Of a stretch of DNA of 64,000 bases, positions 2,565 to 62,277 are shown piece after piece. The notes under the pieces are model-generated. The model had not been told where the DNA came from. It worked only from the letters and a program-made list of their open reading frames with translations, and did no database searches. The translations under genes and the position numbers were made by a program. Source of the stretch: Halobacteriales archaeon QS_8_69_26 (lineage in GTDB: Archaea > Halobacteriota > Halobacteria > Halobacteriales > SW-7-71-33); assembly GCA_003023195.1 (NCBI GenBank), contig PXRX01000003.1, positions 927 to 64,926 of the forward strand, in the 5' to 3' direction. Position 1 is the first letter of the stretch. Every line of letters starts with the position of its first letter.

Positions 2565-2584
2565 TTACAGTAATCTTACTGTAA
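2565..2584. repeat. TTACNGTAA-NN-TTACNGTAA palindrome, copy 1
   Basis: TTACAGTAATCTTACTGTAA. Confidence 0.85.
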
Positions 2585-12080: not shown

Positions 12081-12274
12081 CCCGGCGCGGACCCGAAACG
12101 ATCCCCTGGGACCCGGACCGTCCTCCGGTCCCGTCGGCGGCGAGGAGGACTGCGAGAAACTGGTTCACGTTCACCTGCGCCGTCCCGGCGAGGGCTGACC
12201 GCTCGTGCCGGGGGTGACCGGTCGCGGTGCCCCACCGGAGGCGACCCGTTGCAGTTCCACACCCGGGTGCGGCC

Positions 12275-12455
12275 CCGTTCCACGGGAAACGATCCCTCGT
12301 GAGAAGACGGGGGGCCGGGGGGAAACCGGTTCCACGGGAAACGATCCCTCGTGAGAAGACGGGGTGTCGGGGGGAAACCGGTTCCACGGGAAACGATCCC
12401 TCGGGAGGAGTCGGGTGACTGGGAGGCCCGTTCCACGCGAACCGATCCCTCGTGA
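12275..12455. repeat. ~52-bp tandem repeat x4 containing GTTCCACGGGAAAC
   Basis: Cores start at 12277, 12329, 12381 and 12430 (last one degenerate). Confidence 0.85.
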
Positions 12456-12602
12456 AGGGGTGGCCGACCGGAGAAGCGGCCCCTCCGGAACCACGGAAGA
12501 AACCCATACCGATCCCCACCCTCGCGTTTCGTAACCACTTCCGGCTACGTTCGACTGCCAGGACCGAAGGAGTGTTGAACCCCGAAGCCCCATTGATCGC
12601 CA

Positions 12603-15457: not shown

Positions 15458-15477
15458 CTACGGTAACGTTACTGTAA
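15458..15477. repeat. TTACNGTAA-NN-TTACNGTAA palindrome, copy 2
   Basis: CTACGGTAACGTTACTGTAA (1 mismatch). Confidence 0.8.
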
Positions 15478-15526
15478 ACCGATCCGCCGGCACACACCCC
15501 TGGACTCCCGGTCGGAGGGATGTCTC

Positions 15527-15651
15527 GGCGGACGGGCGGAGGGGCGGCCCGGTGGACGGGCGGAGGGGCGGCCCGGTGGACGGGCGGAGGGGCGGTCCGG
15601 CGGACGGGCGGAGGGGCGGTCCGGCGGACGGGCGGAGGGGCGGTCCGGCGG
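15527..15651. repeat. 24-bp G-rich tandem repeat x5
   Basis: ggyggacgggcggaggggcggycc. Confidence 0.9.
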
Positions 15652-15825
15652 GCAGTCGAACCCGGCGGCTACCGGGCGGCGACGGGGATCGATGGACGCG
15701 ACTGTCCCTCCGGTGGCGGGATCGTCCGGCGACGGGCGGGATCGGAGCGTCGGGGATCGTCCCTGGGGGCGGCGTCGATCGTGTGCGAGACAATCCCTAA
15801 GTCGCTGGAACCGCCAGATCGGGCC

Positions 15826-20875: not shown

Positions 20876-20956
20876 CCTGGGGACCGCTTCGGGCCGGGGG
20901 ACCAAAAGTCGTGTGCCGGGCACGGCCCGTCCCGGCGTCGTCGGGCCGGGTCTGGT

Positions 20957-21090
20957 GTCGAGGAGCGGATCCGGGATCGAGGAGCGGATCCGGGATCGAG
21001 GGACGGATCCGGGATCGAGGGACGGATCCGGGGCCGACGGACGGGTCCGGGGCCGACGGACGGGTCCGGGGCCGACGGACCGGGTCGCGG
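20957..21090. repeat. ~18-bp degenerate tandem repeats
   Basis: gaggagcggatccgggatc and gacggacgggtccggggcc units. Confidence 0.75.
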
Positions 21091-39911: not shown

Positions 39912-39933
39912 TTTACAGTAAATTTACTGTAAA
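39912..39933. repeat. TTACNGTAA-NN-TTACNGTAA palindrome, copy 3 (perfect 22-bp palindrome)
   Basis: TTTACAGTAAATTTACTGTAAA. Confidence 0.9.
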
Positions 39934-50380: not shown

Positions 50381-50431
50381 TTACAGTAACGTTACCGTAA
50401 GTTTCCCCGGGTTACCGTAACCGTACTGTAA
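50381..50431. repeat. TTACNGTAA-NN-TTACNGTAA palindrome, copies 4 and 5 in tandem
   Basis: TTACAGTAACGTTACCGTAA (50381) and TTACCGTAACCGTACTGTAA (50412). Confidence 0.85.
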
Positions 50432-52547: not shown

Positions 52548-54905
52548 TCACTCCCCGCGCCGGCCGCCGTGACCGGGGTAGTCCCGCTCGAAGCGGGCCG
52601 CTATCTCGTCGCGGTCGATCCCCACGACGACGGGGCGCCCGTGCGGGCAGGCGTAGGGGTTCTCGCAGTCGTCCAGCGCGTCCAGCAGGTCGAGCACGGA
52701 CCCCTCGGTCAGCGAGGTGTTGCCCGTGACCGAGGGGTAGCAGGCCAGGTCCGCGAGGAACTCGTCGACGACCTCCTCGACCGTCTCGCCCACCTCGCCC
52801 GTGGCGACGAACTCCCCGAGCAGGTCACGCAGGCGGTCGGGATCCACCGTCGCGTCGAGGACCGCGGGGACCGCCGCGATCCGGAGGGTCCGGCCGCCCG
52901 TGCCCCCCGTGTTCTCGGAGTCGATCGGGTCGCCGCCGGAGTCGGTCGGATCACCGCCGGAGTCGGTCGGACCGCTATCCGAGTCGACCAGTTCGGCCTC
53001 GAACCCCAGGCGCGAGAGCGCCTCGCCGGCGGCCTCGAAGGTCGCCGCCTCGCCGGGCGTCAGTTCCAGTTCCACGGGCGTCGCGAGGCGCTGGGCGGTC
53101 GTCTCCCCCTCGACGGCGGCCGACAGGCGCTCGTAGTTGACCCGCTCGTCGGCCGCGTGCTGGTCCACCAGCGCGATGCCGTCCGGCGTCTCGCAGACGA
53201 CGTAGGTGTCGTCGAGTTGCCCGAGCACCCGCAACGGCGGCAGGCGGTCGTACTCCCGCTCCGGCGTCGCCGTCCCCCCCGACAGCGTCCGCTGGTCCGT
53301 CCCCCCGGAGAACTTCCGGGCGGGATCCGGCCGATCCGTCGACTCCCCGGCGGATCCGGGGCGGTCGTCCTCCCCGGACCGGCCGTCGCCTTCGGGTCGC
53401 TCCCCGGTTTCGGGCGCGGTTCCGGGCCGGGGGTCCCCCGACCCGCCGGATCCGGGGCGGTCGGTCGCGCTCCCGGCGTCGCGGTCGGAACCCTCCGTGG
53501 AGGGACCGCCCCGGCTCCGCCCCCCGGCCGGTTCGCCGCCGGGATCCCCTCCACCGGTCCGACCGCGGACGGGGTCCGGGTCGGCGTCGAGGGCGTCTCC
53601 GGCGGGGGGACGGTGGTCGTCCGCTCGCTCCATCCTCCCGGCATCACCGGTTCCGTCCTCGACGTCTCCGGTCCCGTCACCGCCGTCGTCCGCTGTCCCG
53701 TCCGCACCACTACCCGCCGGATCGACGGGCGTCTCGTCCGGGGCGGACCGGCCGCGCGGGGCGGTCGTGCGGACGAGGCCGTGGTCGAGGAGGGCGTCGC
53801 GGACGGCCGTCCTGACCGCCGCCCGGACGCCGTCCTCGTCGCCGAACCGGACCTCCATCTTCCGGGGGTGGACGTTCACGTCGACCGATCCCGGCGGGAG
53901 TTCCAGGAAGAGGACGGTGAAGGGGTAGCGGTCGCTCGCGAGTTGCCCGCCGTACGCTTCGAGGACCGCCTCTCGGACGACCGCGGCGTCGACGTACCGC
54001 CCGTTGACGAACGCGGTGACGTACTCCCTGCTGGAGCGGGTGGTCTCGGGGTGGCTGACGTACCCGCCCAGGCCGGTCAGCGGTCCCTCCGGGAGGTCGA
54101 CGGGGTCGGCGTCGATGCCCAGCGACCGGTCGGGCGGGTCCCCGCCGACGACGGGGACCATCGCCTCGGCGACCTCCCGGCCGTAGACCGACAGCAGGGC
54201 CGCCCGGAGGTCACCCTCGCCGGTCGTCGCGAACGTCTCGCGGTCGTCGTGGGTCAGCGACACCGCCACGTCGGGGTTCGCCAGCGCGTACCGGGAGACG
54301 ATCCGGTTGACGTGGGCGAACTCGGTGGCCTCCCGCTTGAGGTACTTCCGGCGGGCCGGCGTGTTGTAGAACAAGTCCTCGACGTCCACCGTGGTCCCCT
54401 CCGGACATCCCGCAGGCTCGACCGAGACCACCTCGCCGCCCTCGTAGCGCAGGCGGGTGCCCGCGCCGTCGGCCCCGCGGGGCTTGGTGGTGATCGTCAA
54501 CCGCGAGACGGCGCCGATGGTGTGGAGGGCCTCGCCCCGAAAGCCCAGGGTACCGACGCCGGACTCCAGGTCGTCGATGTCCGCTATCTTCGAGGTGGTG
54601 TGTTCCCGGACCGCGGCCCTGACGTCGGCCTCGGTCATCCCGCGGCCGTCGTCCCGGACCCGGATCCCGCCGGTGCCGTCGCCGTCGATTTCGACGTCGA
54701 TCCGCGAGGCGTCGGCGTCGATGGCGTTCTCGACCAGTTCCTTCACCACCGAGGCGGGGCGCTCGACCACCTCGCCGGCGGCGATCCGTTCGACCGTCGA
54801 CTGGTCGAGGGGTCGGATCTCCGTCCCGGACCCGGCGGGACCGCCGGCGTCCGCGTCCTCGCCAGCGCCGTCGGCCCCCTGGGGGTCGTCCCCGGCGTCG
54901 TTCAT
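52548..54905 (-). CDS. mutL: DNA mismatch repair endonuclease MutL
   Basis: IAAGEVVERPASVVKELVEN, GFRGEAL, DQHAADER, CPHGRP. Confidence 0.95.
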   Translation of the reverse strand: MNDAGDDPQGADGAGEDADAGGPAGSGTEIRPLDQSTVERIAAGEVVERPASVVKELVENAIDADASRIDVEIDGDGTGGIRVRDDGRGMTEADVRAAVREHTTSKIADIDDLESGVGTLGFRGEALHTIGAVSRLTITTKPRGADGAGTRLRYEGGEVVSVEPAGCPEGTTVDVEDLFYNTPARRKYLKREATEFAHVNRIVSRYALANPDVAVSLTHDDRETFATTGEGDLRAALLSVYGREVAEAMVPVVGGDPPDRSLGIDADPVDLPEGPLTGLGGYVSHPETTRSSREYVTAFVNGRYVDAAVVREAVLEAYGGQLASDRYPFTVLFLELPPGSVDVNVHPRKMEVRFGDEDGVRAAVRTAVRDALLDHGLVRTTAPRGRSAPDETPVDPAGSGADGTADDGGDGTGDVEDGTGDAGRMERADDHRPPAGDALDADPDPVRGRTGGGDPGGEPAGGRSRGGPSTEGSDRDAGSATDRPGSGGSGDPRPGTAPETGERPEGDGRSGEDDRPGSAGESTDRPDPARKFSGGTDQRTLSGGTATPEREYDRLPPLRVLGQLDDTYVVCETPDGIALVDQHAADERVNYERLSAAVEGETTAQRLATPVELELTPGEAATFEAAGEALSRLGFEAELVDSDSGPTDSGGDPTDSGGDPIDSENTGGTGGRTLRIAAVPAVLDATVDPDRLRDLLGEFVATGEVGETVEEVVDEFLADLACYPSVTGNTSLTEGSVLDLLDALDDCENPYACPHGRPVVVGIDRDEIAARFERDYPGHGGRRGE

Positions 54906-55044
54906 CGGTCCCGGTTCGTCGTTCGAGGGTAATTAACCCCCGCCCCGGACGCCCGGCCCCGACCGGATCCCCCGGCCTCCCACTCGCCCCGGACGCCCGG
55001 CGCCGACCGAAACCCCCTCGGCCCCCCGGACCGGAGTGGGGACG

Positions 55045-55761
55045 ATGATCGACCGTGCGGTGCTGTCCTGGAGCGGCGGGAAGGACGCCGCCCTCGCCCT
55101 CCACGAACTCGCCGGATCCGGAGGCGAGGGCGGATCCGGGGACGTGGGGGGAGCACCAGAGATCGCAGTCGAGCGACTGCTCACCACCGTCTCGGCCGCG
55201 ACCGACCGGGTCACGATGCACGGCGTGCGCCCGGAACTGGTCGAGCGCCAGGCCGCGGCCGCCGGCCTCCCCCTGGACGTCCTCGAACTGCCGGCCGATC
55301 CCTCCAACGAGGAGTACGAGGCCGCCATGACCGGCCAGTTGCGCGAGTACGCCGACCGGGGGATCGACCGGGCCGTCTTCGCCGACGTGTTCCTCTCGGA
55401 CGTGCGGGCGTACCGCGAGGAGAACCTCTCGGACACCCCGCTGTCGGGGTACTGGCCGCTGTGGGGCCGGGACACCGAGGACCTGGTCGAGGAACTGCTG
55501 GCGGCCGGTTTCCGGGCCACCGTCGTCTGCGTCGACGGATCCGCGCTGGACCGGTCGTTCGTCGGCCGGGACCTCGACCGCGACTGTCTCGCCGACCTGC
55601 CCGAGGGCGTGGATCCCTGCGGCGAGAACGGCGAGTTCCACACCTTCGTCCGGGACTGCCCGGCCTTCGAGGCCCCCGTCCACGTCGAGACCGGAGAGCG
55701 GGTCACCAGGACCGTCGCCGGGAGCGAGTTCCACTACTGCGACCTCCTCCCGGCGGAGTGA
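55045..55761 (+). CDS. adenine nucleotide alpha-hydrolase (diphthamide synthase-like ATP-binding protein)
   Basis: SWSGGKDA, MHGV, PLWG, DPCGENGEFHTFV. Confidence 0.85.
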   Translation: MIDRAVLSWSGGKDAALALHELAGSGGEGGSGDVGGAPEIAVERLLTTVSAATDRVTMHGVRPELVERQAAAAGLPLDVLELPADPSNEEYEAAMTGQLREYADRGIDRAVFADVFLSDVRAYREENLSDTPLSGYWPLWGRDTEDLVEELLAAGFRATVVCVDGSALDRSFVGRDLDRDCLADLPEGVDPCGENGEFHTFVRDCPAFEAPVHVETGERVTRTVAGSEFHYCDLLPAE

Positions 55762-55995
55762 TCCGGAGAACCGCGTTCGCTGGTCCGTCCACACGGCGCG
55801 CGGGCCGCGCCGCCAGGCGCGGCCTCGTGCGAGGGGCGAGCACCGCAGGCGGCCGACCAGCGGGAGGCCGACAAGGAGCGCAGTCGGTTGGGGAGGGTCG
55901 AGGCCCTAGCTCCTGACGGGCAGTCCAGTTCCGTAGGCCGGGCGAGACGGAGCCGAGATCACAGCGAGAACGGCCGGATCAGCGAGGAAGACCGA

Positions 55996-56238
55996 TCACA
56001 GCGGGAACGACCGCATCACCGACGGGAGGTAGTTCGTCAGCCGGGTCCTGAGCGGGCCGGAGAGGTCGTGGATCCGCTCCCGTTCGTCGTCGGTCAACTC
56101 GAAGTCGAAGACGGCGAGGTTCTGCGCCAGGTGCTCGCGGCTGGACGACCGGGGGATCGCGACGACGTTTGCCTGGCCGACCAGCCAGCGCAGGGCGACC
56201 TGGGCGGCGGTCTTGTCGTACCGCTGGCCGATCCGCTT
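55996..56238 (-). pseudogene. aldo/keto reductase C-terminal fragment
   Basis: RIGQRYDKTAAQVALRWLV.Q.NVVAIPRSSSREHLAQNLAVFDFELT; no start codon, and an in-frame TAA lies just upstream inside the palindrome. Confidence 0.85.
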
Positions 56239-56256
56239 ACAGTAAAATTACCGTAA
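56237..56256. repeat. TTACNGTAA-NN-TTACNGTAA palindrome, copy 6
   Basis: TTACAGTAAAATTACCGTAA. Confidence 0.85.
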
Positions 56257-56306
56257 AATGCGAGCCTGGGATCCACCCGCTCAGTGGTACCCGACCGACA
56301 GGGTGG

Positions 56307-57197
56307 CTACCCGTCGACGTGCTCGGTCACCCCGACCACCGCGACCGACCCGTCTATCGTGGCCTCGACCCGCGGGCCGTCCTCGATGGGAAAGGCCACC
56401 CGGACCCGCCAGGGGTCCTCCGAGAGCACCTCGGTGTGGCGGTCACTGACCAGCTGTGGGATCGTCCAGTAGGGTCGCTGGCGGGGGTAGGCGTCGTGGC
56501 GGTGGTGGAACGACTGGACCGCGGGGTGGTTGAGCGCCACGCTCCCGAAGGAGGTGGTGGCGGTGCGACGACAGACCCGGCACTCGAAGCGGGGCAGGAC
56601 GTCGAAGTCGAGGTAGTCGGCCACGTCGGTGGTGACCCGCCCGTCCATGTGGCCGGTGCACTCGGGACAGACGCCACCGGCCGCCAGGTTCGCCTGGGCG
56701 GTGCTCCAGCGGTCGAACGCCGCGAACACCTCCGCCGGCGTCCGACCCCGGACCGCCGCGGGCGAGAACGGCACCGACACGATCCGTTCCTCGCAGGCCG
56801 TACAGCGGATCGTCAGCGTCTCGTTCTCGTAGCTCCCCTCCAGGGCCTCGGCCCCGCAGGCGTAGCACGCGCCCGGCGCCGGGGCCGGGGCGACCCGGGC
56901 CCGGTCGGTGAACGTCCCCGCGAGGATGGCGTGGGCGATCCGCCGGCCGTGGTAGCGGAAGGCGTAGCCGTCCTCGTCGTGTTCGACGAAGTGGCCGACG
57001 AGTTGCTGGAGGTGGTAGTTGAACCGTCCGCTGTCGCCCGTTCCGACCGCTTCCCGGAGTTCCGAGAACGAGAGGGGTGCCTCGTCGTCGCGTTCCACGA
57101 GGGCGCGGAGTATCTCGGTCCGCGTCTCGTTGCCGAGGATCCCGAACGCCTCCGCGGCCGGGATGGCCTCGGCGCGGTCGGTGTCCGGTTCGTCCAT
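56307..57197 (-). CDS. ArsR-like wHTH protein with zinc ribbons
   Basis: AFGILGNETR..IL, FSELR...DSGRFNYHL, multiple CxxC. Confidence 0.85.
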   Translation of the reverse strand: MDEPDTDRAEAIPAAEAFGILGNETRTEILRALVERDDEAPLSFSELREAVGTGDSGRFNYHLQQLVGHFVEHDEDGYAFRYHGRRIAHAILAGTFTDRARVAPAPAPGACYACGAEALEGSYENETLTIRCTACEERIVSVPFSPAAVRGRTPAEVFAAFDRWSTAQANLAAGGVCPECTGHMDGRVTTDVADYLDFDVLPRFECRVCRRTATTSFGSVALNHPAVQSFHHRHDAYPRQRPYWTIPQLVSDRHTEVLSEDPWRVRVAFPIEDGPRVEATIDGSVAVVGVTEHVDG

Positions 57198-57274
57198 GGG
57201 ACGCCTTCACCCGGCGGTGGTTTAGGGGTATCGGGGGGTCGGACGCGACACCACTGATCGCGGTATCGGCCCGC

Positions 57275-57796
57275 TCAGACCGCCAGCACCGGCTGGCTGG
57301 CGTACGAGAGGACGTACTCGGCGGCTTTCTCCAGGGCCTCCGGGGCGTCGACGGCCCGTTCGCGTGGCACCACGACGAAGTCGGCGTCGGCCTCCTCGGC
57401 GCAGTCCAGGATCACGCTCCCCGGGTGGCGGGTCAGCCGACCGGTCGAGAACCCGGCGGCCGTCGAGGACGAGACGGCGACCGACCGGCGCGAGCAGACC
57501 GCTCGCACCTGCTCGAAGAACCGGCTGGCGCCCTCGGCGACGGCCTCGCGTTCCAGGTCCCCGGCGCGGATCTCCCGCGCCGTCTCGCTGCCGACCACGT
57601 AGAGGGCGTGGACGTCGGCCCCGTAGCGGTCGGCCACGGCCGCCGCGTGCTCCACGGCCGTCAGCGCCTCCTCGCTCCCGTCGACGGGGACCAGGACGCA
57701 CTCGACGGTCACGTCGTCGTCCGGGGATCCACTTGCGGAGGCGTCGTCCGGGGATCCACTGGCGGAGACGTCGCCGTCGGTATCTGTGGGACTCAC
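57275..57796 (-). CDS. universal stress protein
   Basis: VLVPVDGS, HPGSVILD.A, ASQPVLAV. Confidence 0.85.
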   Translation of the reverse strand: MSPTDTDGDVSASGSPDDASASGSPDDDVTVECVLVPVDGSEEALTAVEHAAAVADRYGADVHALYVVGSETAREIRAGDLEREAVAEGASRFFEQVRAVCSRRSVAVSSSTAAGFSTGRLTRHPGSVILDCAEEADADFVVVPRERAVDAPEALEKAAEYVLSYASQPVLAV

Positions 57797-57912
57797 GGTT
57801 CACGGTGCGGACGGCACCGGCAAAACCCTGACTCTTCGCGTCGGTGGTCGTGCGGGTGAGGACGCCCGGGATCCCGCCGGGCCGGGACCATTCCGGTCCC
57901 ACGCACCCGGGA

Positions 57913-58455
57913 TCAGGCCAGCCGGATCGAGTACTCCCGCTCGAAGCGGTCGTTGCCCGAGGGTTCGAACCCCACCTTCTCGTAGACCCGGATGGCGGGC
58001 TTGTTCCAGGGTTCGACGGTCAACCAGACGCGGTCGACCCCCTGGCGGGCGCCCTCCCCCAGGAGCGTCCGGAGGAGTTCCGTTCCGATCCCGGCACCCT
58101 GGTAGTCCCCGAGGACGAAGATGGCGAGTTCGTGGCTGTCGGCGTCGGTGGGTGCGTCGGGGACGAGGGTGGCGTGGCCGACCGTGCCCCCGTCGTGCCG
58201 GGCGACGACGTTGACCCCCTCGTCCAGGAGTTGCTCGACCCACTCGCGGATCCGCTCCTCGCCGACAGGAGGGATCCCCTGGGCGCGGTCGGACGGGTCG
58301 AACGCCCGGTACATCGCCACCAGGTCCTCCGTCCTGTCCTCGTCGACCGCCCGGAACTCGACGGTCCGGTCGGCCCGGTCCTCGACGGTCCGGGGCGGCG
58401 CCTCGAAGGGACCGGCTGGCTCGTCGGGGTAGACGCGGGTGCGGTCCCCGGTCAT
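57913..58455 (-). CDS. GNAT family N-acetyltransferase
   Basis: ELAIFV..YQGAGIGT, N.PAI..YEKVGF. Confidence 0.88.
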   Translation of the reverse strand: MTGDRTRVYPDEPAGPFEAPPRTVEDRADRTVEFRAVDEDRTEDLVAMYRAFDPSDRAQGIPPVGEERIREWVEQLLDEGVNVVARHDGGTVGHATLVPDAPTDADSHELAIFVLGDYQGAGIGTELLRTLLGEGARQGVDRVWLTVEPWNKPAIRVYEKVGFEPSGNDRFEREYSIRLA

Positions 58456-58823
58456 GGTTCGCGGATCACCGTGACCGTGACGGAACTGCTCATCAGCACC
58501 GCCTGTACCACCGGATCGATCTCCACCTTCCCCATCGGGCTCCGCCCGCCGCCGCCGAGGACGATGCGGTCGAACCCCTCCCGCTCGGCGAGGGCGACCA
58601 GGCGACCCGCAGGGTCCCCCGACAGCGCCCGTACGTCGGGCTCCAGTCCCGCCGCCGTCAGCGTCTCCCGCGCGTCGGCGACCAGCCCCTCGCCGGGGGA
58701 GCGGTCCCCGGGGGCGAGGACGGCGACGACGAGGTCGTCGCCCGTCGCGGCCGCGCGTTCGGCCGCCAGTTCGAGGCCCCGCCGGGGTCGGTCGGCGTCC
58801 CAGAGCCCGTACAGCACCCTCAT
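58452..58823 (-). CDS. universal stress protein
   Basis: GDPAGRLV..AE.E.FD.IVLGGG.RSPMGK. Confidence 0.82.
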   Translation of the reverse strand: MRVLYGLWDADRPRRGLELAAERAAATGDDLVVAVLAPGDRSPGEGLVADARETLTAAGLEPDVRALSGDPAGRLVALAEREGFDRIVLGGGGRSPMGKVEIDPVVQAVLMSSSVTVTVIREP

Positions 58824-61158: not shown

Positions 61159-62094
61159 ATGGGCCGGCTCGGACGGTACTGGCCGGAGATCCGGTCGCAG
61201 GCCAAGCGCCTCCTCGTCTGGCTGGTGGCCGCGGCCATCGTCGCCGTGGCGGTGGGGCTGGTGTGGGCCGGGACGCCGTACGAGGCCACCGACGGGAGCG
61301 TCGAGGCCGTCGAGGACGACGACCGGGTGGTCGTCGAGCGAACCGACGGGGGCTACGTCCTCCACCCGGCCGACGGTCCCGCGGAGACGGGGCTGGTGTT
61401 CTACCCCGGCGGGCGCGTCGATCCGAACGCCTACGTCGGGTCGCTCGCGGGGCTGGTGCGGGAGGCGAACGTCACCGTCGTGATCCCACGGATGCCGCTG
61501 AACCTCGCGATTTTCGACTACGGGGCGGGGCAAACCGGCCTCCGCTCCCACGCCGCCGACGAGGCGATGGCCGAACACCCGTTCGTCGAGCACTGGTACG
61601 TCGGCGGCCACTCGCTGGGCGGGGCAATGGCCTGCCGGTACGCGGCCGACCACCCGGATGCCGTCGAGGGGGTCGTCCTCTACGCCTCGTACTGCGACGT
61701 GGACGTCTCGGAGGGGGACCTCTCGGCGGTGAGCGTCGTCGGGGCGAACGACACCGTGTTGAACCGGGACGCCTACGAGCGCAACCGCGACAACCTCCCG
61801 GCGTCGGCCCGGGTCGCGGTGCTGCCGGGGCTCAACCACACCCACTTCGGGAGCTACACCGGCCAGGACCGCCCCACCGGCACCAGCTACGAGGAGGCCC
61901 ACGAACGGATCGACGGCGTCGTCGTCCCGTGGCTGCGAACCGAAACCGCCACCGAGGACCGGATCATCCACCCTCACGGGGCGGCGCAATCGCTCCGCGT
62001 CACGGGGAGAACCCGGTCCCCGCGGCTACTCGGTGAGGGGCACGGTCCCCGCGGCTACTCGGTGAGGGGCACGGTCCCCGCGGCTACTCGGTGA
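61159..62094 (+). CDS. membrane-anchored alpha/beta hydrolase
   Basis: FYPGGRV, GGHSLGG, NHTHFGSY; the C-terminus runs into a tandem repeat. Confidence 0.82.
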   Translation: MGRLGRYWPEIRSQAKRLLVWLVAAAIVAVAVGLVWAGTPYEATDGSVEAVEDDDRVVVERTDGGYVLHPADGPAETGLVFYPGGRVDPNAYVGSLAGLVREANVTVVIPRMPLNLAIFDYGAGQTGLRSHAADEAMAEHPFVEHWYVGGHSLGGAMACRYAADHPDAVEGVVLYASYCDVDVSEGDLSAVSVVGANDTVLNRDAYERNRDNLPASARVAVLPGLNHTHFGSYTGQDRPTGTSYEEAHERIDGVVVPWLRTETATEDRIIHPHGAAQSLRVTGRTRSPRLLGEGHGPRGYSVRGTVPAATR

Positions 62095-62136
62095 GGGGCA
62101 CGGTCCCCGCGGCTACTCGGTGAGGGGCACGGTCCC
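62014..62136. repeat. 29-bp tandem repeat x4
   Basis: cggtccccgcggctactcggtgaggggca at 62014, 62043, 62072, 62101. Confidence 0.9.
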
Positions 62137-62277
62137 GTAACCATTCGTCATCGCCACCACCAGACGGGTCGGTTCGGGGCGGTATCAATCCATCGTCACC
62201 GAAGATCGGGGTTCGGGATCCCCGCCGTCGACCGGACCCGATCCCCGGCCCCCGACCGGGAGCGGTACTCGCCGCCG

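Follow-up and report, generated by a model that had tools for sequence, protein, structure and literature searches.

Here we describe a 20-bp palindrome that recurs at 186 loci in the genome of Halobacteriales archaeon QS_8_69_26, and we propose, as a reading that we hold at about even chances, that a domesticated reader protein occupies these sites as a genome-wide lattice of roadblocks and that a deletion in an aldo/keto reductase (AKR) gene stopped at the edge of one of them. The window, by which we mean the whole stretch of DNA analysed, comprises 64,000 nucleotides of contig PXRX01000003.1, which is contig C3 of the source genome (G000; 3.29 Mb, 87% complete, and alone in its genus among the genomes compared). 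The palindrome at the junction, TTACAGTAAAATTACCGTAA at 56237-56256, has the form TTACNGTAA-NN-TTACNGTAA. Its surroundings and the other copies in the window are listed in Table 1.

Table 1. Features at the AKR junction and further palindrome copies, in window coordinates
Feature	Position	Strand	Remarks
Palindrome copy at the junction	56237..56256	.	two 9-bp TTACNGTAA half-sites whose starts are 11 bp apart; predicted docking site of the RHH-like protein
AKR gene, 3' remnant	55996..56236	-	residues ~199-277; own stop present; without internal stop or frameshift
TAA within the palindrome, in frame with the AKR remnant and upstream of it	56248..56250	-	uninformative
50-bp spacer from the palindrome to the stop of the HTH gene	56257..56306	.	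similarity to five intact AKR loci no higher than that of shuffles
Intact DUF7347/DUF7351 HTH gene, ending 50 bp short of the palindrome	56307..57197	-	not adjacent to AKR in genome G002
Diphthamide-synthase-family gene, convergent with the AKR remnant	55045..55761	+	not adjacent to AKR in genome G002
Array copy, intergenic	2565..2584	.	
Array copy, one mismatch, intergenic	15458..15477	.	
Array copy, intergenic	39913..39932	.	
Tandem pair, 31 bp apart (about three helical turns)	50381..50431	.	resembles the 30-bp pair upstream of the C24 reader gene

A sequence-only reading of the window had placed the palindrome exactly at the breakpoint of an AKR gene lacking the N-terminal two-thirds of its protein, and both points hold. 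The minus-strand piece matches Pfam Aldo_ket_red and aligns at 70% identity with residues 199-277 of the intact 277-aa orthologue in genome G002; 198 of the 277 residues, or 71% of the gene, are gone. This identity is in line with the 66% median for orthologues, and, since the remnant carries no internal stop, the loss looks recent. When six intact AKR genes are set in register, homology begins at 56236/56235, 0-1 nt off the palindrome, and identity inside the palindrome falls to background. The remnant was thought to overlap the edge of the palindrome; instead it abuts it, and its first K codon (56238-56236), built from two palindrome bases, is not homologous to AKR. The palindrome does supply an in-frame TAA at 56250-56248, as had been noted, but this triplet lies upstream of the remnant, terminates nothing, and tells us little, since on either strand two of the three frames of the consensus contain a TAA.

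A contig of run X1 (a halite metagenome, possibly the source sample and so not independent) covers 55813-58500 with zero differences, and its unchanged passage across the junction argues against a misjoin. In G002, the three genes at the AKR locus lie on three separate contigs. An AKR-derived origin of the palindrome or of the 50-bp spacer was rejected, since neither has similarity to AKR sequence. The missing 5' part, for which the sequence-only reading had suggested looking beside another palindrome copy, was found neither there nor elsewhere in the 87% complete G000, whose remaining AKR matches are paralogues of 23-55% identity. One of its N-terminal AKR pieces, beside a palindrome on contig C35, was rejected as the lost half, being 45.5% identical to the G002 orthologue and closest to another paralogue. 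A second broken AKR paralogue (L311, G000:C35:89760-90410) has an internal deletion and an intact start 65 bp from a palindrome. A search of 54900-57400 against Rfam gave no match. At 55790-55905 the window also carries a dispersed intergenic repeat of about 110 bp, with 37 BLAST matches in G000, further matches in other haloarchaea and none in Rfam.

The window holds six palindrome copies, against 0.00 in 100 shuffles, and G000 as a whole holds 103 exact and 199 near copies of the same form, grouped into the 186 loci. A 36-bit weight matrix run over the genome added only three sites, all weak, and decayed copies are almost absent; the central dinucleotide is free, with 16 types. The exact palindrome was absent from 300 genomes of the same order, and no comparable array was found in relatives, where relaxed cores gave at most four copies (400 genomes) and other half-site spacings at most eight (300 genomes). 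Gaps between loci have a median of 13.6 kb and a mode of 10-12 kb: just 5 of 142 are shorter than 6 kb, where three null models give means of 43-45 and minima of 27-29, and 9 (n=142) exceed 30 kb, against 16.6 under the null. Such even spacing, taken together with the strongly kept consensus, indicates that the site is under selection for protein binding. Our own Markov caller yielded 2915 genes and missed some real ones; by its calls, 183 loci of the 186 are intergenic: 85 stand between tandem genes, 64 between divergent and 32 between convergent ones, and the remaining 2 are at contig ends. The 50 bp before gene starts are avoided, with 7 sites where 46 are expected. At seven loci the palindrome is doubled, the two copies being 30-32 bp apart. 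Three solo sites have 30-60 bp of flank in common, and a few sites were copied with short flanks. A metal-responsive ArsR operator was considered and dropped, the neighbours being repair genes and transposases. A search of the openly accessible literature listed no paper on the palindrome motif, the reader family or the element described below.

Other repeated sequences were seen along the way. GGATCC shows a 3.9-fold over-representation in G000, compared with 0.43 in the half of G002 that was sampled, and is a second lineage-specific signal; GATCC reaches 19 per kb within 50 bp of palindromes versus about 11 in other intergenic DNA. Four 52-bp tandem units at 12263-12467 of the window, upstream of a cysteine-desulfurase-like gene, resemble archaeal origin recognition boxes; no cdc6 gene was seen beside them. 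Short tandem arrays at 15485-15676 (periods 24 and 8), 20924-21075 (19 bp) and 61985-62158 (29 bp) lie outside genes or at their ends.

The AKR gene is one of four 5'-truncated genes that read away from a palindrome, found among 370 flanks where about 0.5 would be expected within 20 nt (P~0.002), an expectation that is Poisson and derives from a rough count of about 61 truncated pieces genome-wide; 143 of the 370 flanks had any homologue in the small database used. The truncated start lies 0-1 nt from the palindrome in AKR, at most 7 nt in an ABC ATPase on C21, at most 18 nt (0 with one gap) in an HlyC/CorC gene on C7, and at most 17 nt (about 3 with gaps) in an N6/N4 methyltransferase on C20. 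Flanks C11:2418, C1:62657 and C9:1115 had also been flagged and were discarded, the cause being an ORF artefact, length variation or a weak distant match. A direct control gave 9 of 1120 points within 30 nt, a rate similar to that at palindromes, and does not decide the matter because most control points appear to fall inside fragments. We regard the enrichment of truncated genes at palindromes as likely. The sequence-only reading had asked whether other copies abut truncated genes, which these few do and the other 182 of the 186 loci do not; it had also supposed that the palindrome took part in, or was left by, a rearrangement, for which the flush break and the three further truncated genes speak, while a simple scar is unsupported. 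Selection alone on the palindrome could also leave breaks near its edge. Conservation of neighbours was of no help here: in half of G002, neighbours are kept at 3 of 53 palindrome-bearing gaps versus 11.4 for matched gaps, and, because gaps with an unrelated repeat behave alike (kept in 1 of 17), low synteny was dropped as evidence for breakage at palindromes.

The candidate reader is a protein of 64 aa encoded on the minus strand of contig C24 (12222-12413); its gene sits between cdd and udp, with palindromes at -40 and -70 and with no ParA-like gene adjoining. Judged from sequence, the palindrome is the likely docking site of this RHH-like protein. A half-site occurs within 100 bp upstream in 50 of 51 distinct loci of the reader family and downstream in 46 of the 51, against 1.8% of 660 control windows; the 51 are those with enough flank, five of them found via the motif and two from G000 itself. 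Half-site spacing in the family is 11, 12 or 21 bp, by subfamily. The Arc repressor has two half-sites 11 bp apart, and we think it very probable here that each of two RHH dimers occupies one half-site, the two lying a helical turn apart. An AF2 model (pLDDT 86.5) gives an extended segment at residues 1-12, helices at 13-25 and 31-46, and an extra helix, the N-terminal strand followed by two helices being the RHH layout. The folds closest to this model are mostly RHH (NikR, MazE9, ParD2, PutA RHH and Arc), with a middling best Z of 5.7, and MatP and CdbA are also among its neighbours; Foldseek with a first, weaker model returned nothing at E<=0.001. Pfam RHH_1 matches 4 of 63 family members weakly (best E 3.2e-4) and the G000 protein not at all, and no family in NCBIfam fits the reader. 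A homodimer prediction scored 0.30, where the mark was 0.42, and was counted neither for nor against.

Among 300 other genomes, 36 carry a member of the reader family; none of four genomes of the host's own taxonomic family (55-78% complete) does. A metagenome scan found 44 loci at 40-60% identity over most of the protein, none close, and one protein 89% identical to the reader (P0020) is present only on contigs up to 1.1 kb. In one of five other genomes, G004, cdd and udp are directly adjacent and the reader gene is absent; in the other four they are unlinked. The GC3 of the C24 gene, 0.92, equals the genome median, and that of other family copies is 0.35-0.75. The gene was, we judge, probably captured between cdd and udp and then retained.

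A scan of all genomes with the palindrome found 59 loci, one of them in Halorubrum vacuolatum, where a 63-codon ORF lies between two palindromes inside a unit of about 300 bp with inverted repeats. Inverted repeats of 15-24 bp bound units of 290-395 bp without a transposase in about half of the 51 loci, and some of these repeats may be target hairpins. One element copy (L137) splits an ORF and has an 11-bp target duplication; duplications of 5-6 bp occur at L155, L163 and L165, and none were found in most others. At C42:16297, G000 itself keeps a decayed AT-rich element copy. A mobile-element origin of the palindrome-reader pair is thus supported by sequence comparison, and the C24 gene is likely a capture from a miniature mobile element. 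The idea of a mobile scar, raised from the window alone, survives to this extent, but the solo copies have neither target duplication nor terminal repeat. With archaeal MITEs and non-autonomous IS derivatives (PMC13343696), the elements share a size of ~300-390 bp, inverted-repeat ends and some target duplications; unlike those, the haloarchaeal element carries one small gene between two predicted operators of its own, and the solo sites in G000, unlike the element form, have lost every element feature. As a class, these widespread and uncurated 290-395-bp elements, each with one RHH-like gene between two predicted operators, span L098, L099, L137, L150-L173 and L255-L292, and have several unrelated sets of terminal repeats.

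Related sites also occur farther afield. In Nitrososphaerales, each genome has 5-11 palindromes, which precede radA, the PolB operon, a photolyase-like radical SAM gene and TFB. A gene for a 126-aa RHH-like protein, a distant homologue of the reader, has a related site upstream in seven loci and is apparently autoregulated; the first 21 residues of this protein align with the reader family (probability 66.5%). We consider this a candidate DNA-damage regulon in Nitrososphaerales and related MAGs (L100, L101, L103, L105, L107, L112, L113, L145, L301-L306). Saccharicrinis genomes G306-G308 (L039, L044, L067) have 8-11 copies, mostly hundreds of kb apart, and a query of G307 with the Nitrososphaerales protein found no homologue. 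In a 52-kb phage record (G528; L396, L412) a related palindrome occurs 21 times, spread over the length of the record, and no reader homologue was found in it.

How might such a system have come about and what would it do? In the mechanism that we propose, a MITE-type cargo RHH gene would have been captured between cdd and udp and maintained, and its RHH-like product would occupy the 186 palindromes, forming roadblocks on the DNA. The bound complex would stop what travels along the DNA, in the likeliest case nucleases that resect an end, and SMC or RNA polymerase may be halted as well. Even spacing would be kept if a further site less than ~6 kb away brings no gain and long bare stretches are costly, with the result that one palindrome is retained per ~11-16 kb. 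In Haloferax, MMEJ is known to follow resection (PMC12281630); halted resection followed by microhomology joining would place the deletion endpoint at the palindrome edge, and the deletion that took the front of the AKR gene would have ended in this way. Only tentatively, as a somewhat improbable extension, the system could be a lineage-specific archaeal functional counterpart of Chi, derived from a domesticated MITE cargo RHH gene, in which the ~11-16-kb lattice caps DSB loss and the decapitated genes are footprints. Chi is an oriented 8-mer that is read by the RecBCD nuclease itself. Under this extension alone, the two would be alike as dispersed self-marks limiting degradation from a broken end; unlike Chi, the palindrome is symmetric and has a separate predicted reader.

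The main rival accepts the same reader and lattice and assigns them to chromosome folding or segregation (in the manner of SegB, HpaB or MatP, or by SMC stalling), the palindrome being passive in the deletions: those that remove it would be purged, so that the surviving breaks adjoin it. The even spacing and intergenic placement suit this account, SMC is present in G000, and there are precedents in RHH proteins, SegB (10.1101/2025.02.07.637068) and HpaB (PMC13722703), and in the roadblock TrmBL2 (PMC11840125). Against it, the breaks gather within 18 nt of the palindrome, with essentially none at 20-130 nt, and the remnants are little eroded; no ParA-like gene was found beside the reader. We consider it unlikely.

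Quite unlikely, in our assessment, is that the palindromes are mobile scars, relics of RHH-element insertions spaced by target immunity, with the cut genes left by element-driven adjacent deletions. Such a history would fit several findings: real elements in other haloarchaea carry a palindrome at each inner end, and one of these elements splits a gene; a decayed copy lies at C42:16297; three sites share flanking sequence; and the palindrome at the junction was not formed in situ out of the AKR gene. The solo sites (185 loci), however, show no excess of inverted repeats, no 5-8 bp flanking duplications beyond shuffled pairs and no reader remnants, and the breaks abut the predicted operator rather than a terminal repeat 10-35 bp outside it. 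The consensus, moreover, is held at ~36 bits with almost no decayed copies, which indicates current selection.

A global transcription factor regulon, in which an RHH protein would act on many genes from a position ~45 bp before their TATA box, the AKR junction being due to chance, seems to us very unlikely. Distances to gene starts do lend it something: 37 sites lie 70-80 bp upstream of a start where 8.9 are expected, and a start is found 50-100 bp away at 81 of the 186 loci. The Nitrososphaerales palindromes upstream of radA, the PolB operon and the photolyase-like gene point the same way. Yet 34 loci face no start, the genes downstream have mixed functions with no common theme, radA here lies 10 kb from a palindrome, and regulons are not evenly spaced along chromosomes. 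The 32 of 186 loci between convergent genes equal the background level (15.8% of gaps), without orientation preference, and the sites are not confined to promoters of related genes, which bears out the earlier judgement that the palindrome is no ordinary promoter operator.

That a site-specific recombinase cut the AKR gene with the palindrome as its crossover site, a recombination-site role being one of the two that the sequence-only reading had favoured, is hardly tenable and already largely refuted: the flush junction, the dyad symmetry and one Halorubrum copy adjoining a tyrosine integrase would suit it, but of 29 broken adjacencies just 1 carries a palindrome at each end (1.2 expected; half of G002 sampled), the free 2-bp centre leaves no conserved overlap, the breaks lie outside the palindrome and not in its centre, no homologue of the Halorubrum integrase was found in G000, and the lost 5' AKR part was not found there. 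The data rule against both a crossover at the palindrome and fresh scars.

MatP/matS in E. coli, CdbA in Myxococcus and KorB/OB in RK2 are familiar cases in which a dimeric protein organises DNA through scattered sites, and the present array differs from all of them in motif, host and range; to our knowledge, neither MatP, CdbA nor KorB derives from a MITE cargo gene. The array is partly like SegB, HpaB and MatP, with a small reader and dispersed sites; its reader gene is in no operon with ParA, and it differs from them in spacing, number and origin. SegB of Saccharolobus solfataricus (10.1101/2025.02.07.637068) is a site-specific archaeal protein that likewise has a palindrome upstream of its locus, together with dozens of sites on the chromosome, which it is proposed to organise, but its 46 sites are 84% intragenic and clustered near segAB, with a ParA partner; ours are 186 intergenic, evenly spaced loci with another motif, no adjacent ParA and a candidate reader whose family occurs on mobile elements. 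HpaB, too, comes from a haloarchaeon and is predicted to be an RHH protein, and its AT-rich sites lie in intergenic DNA next to unrelated genes; it is a protein of ~150 aa in an operon with ParA, with six hpaS3 sites on one replicon, Haloferax volcanii pHV3 (PMC13722703), unlike the stand-alone 64-aa gene and genome-wide sites found here. TrmBL2 of Thermococcus kodakarensis, a euryarchaeon that has SMC, is bound to DNA at tens of loci and acts there as a roadblock to SMC; it forms filaments whose stalling efficiency is tied to DNA structure (PMC11840125), and differs in this from a strict 20-bp dyad with a small RHH-like candidate reader.

With the proposed lattice, a genome-wide array of even spacing on an archaeal chromosome gains a 20-bp site and a candidate reader, and there emerges a plausible route by which a 300-bp mobile cassette may become a chromosome-wide system within one lineage. 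The analysis also brings to light an uncurated family of RHH-like proteins carried by MITE-like elements and, in Nitrososphaerales, a candidate DNA-damage regulator. The array bears on how chromosomes are organised and protected in polyploid haloarchaea, and the 64-aa protein and its 20-mer are directly testable in Haloferax.
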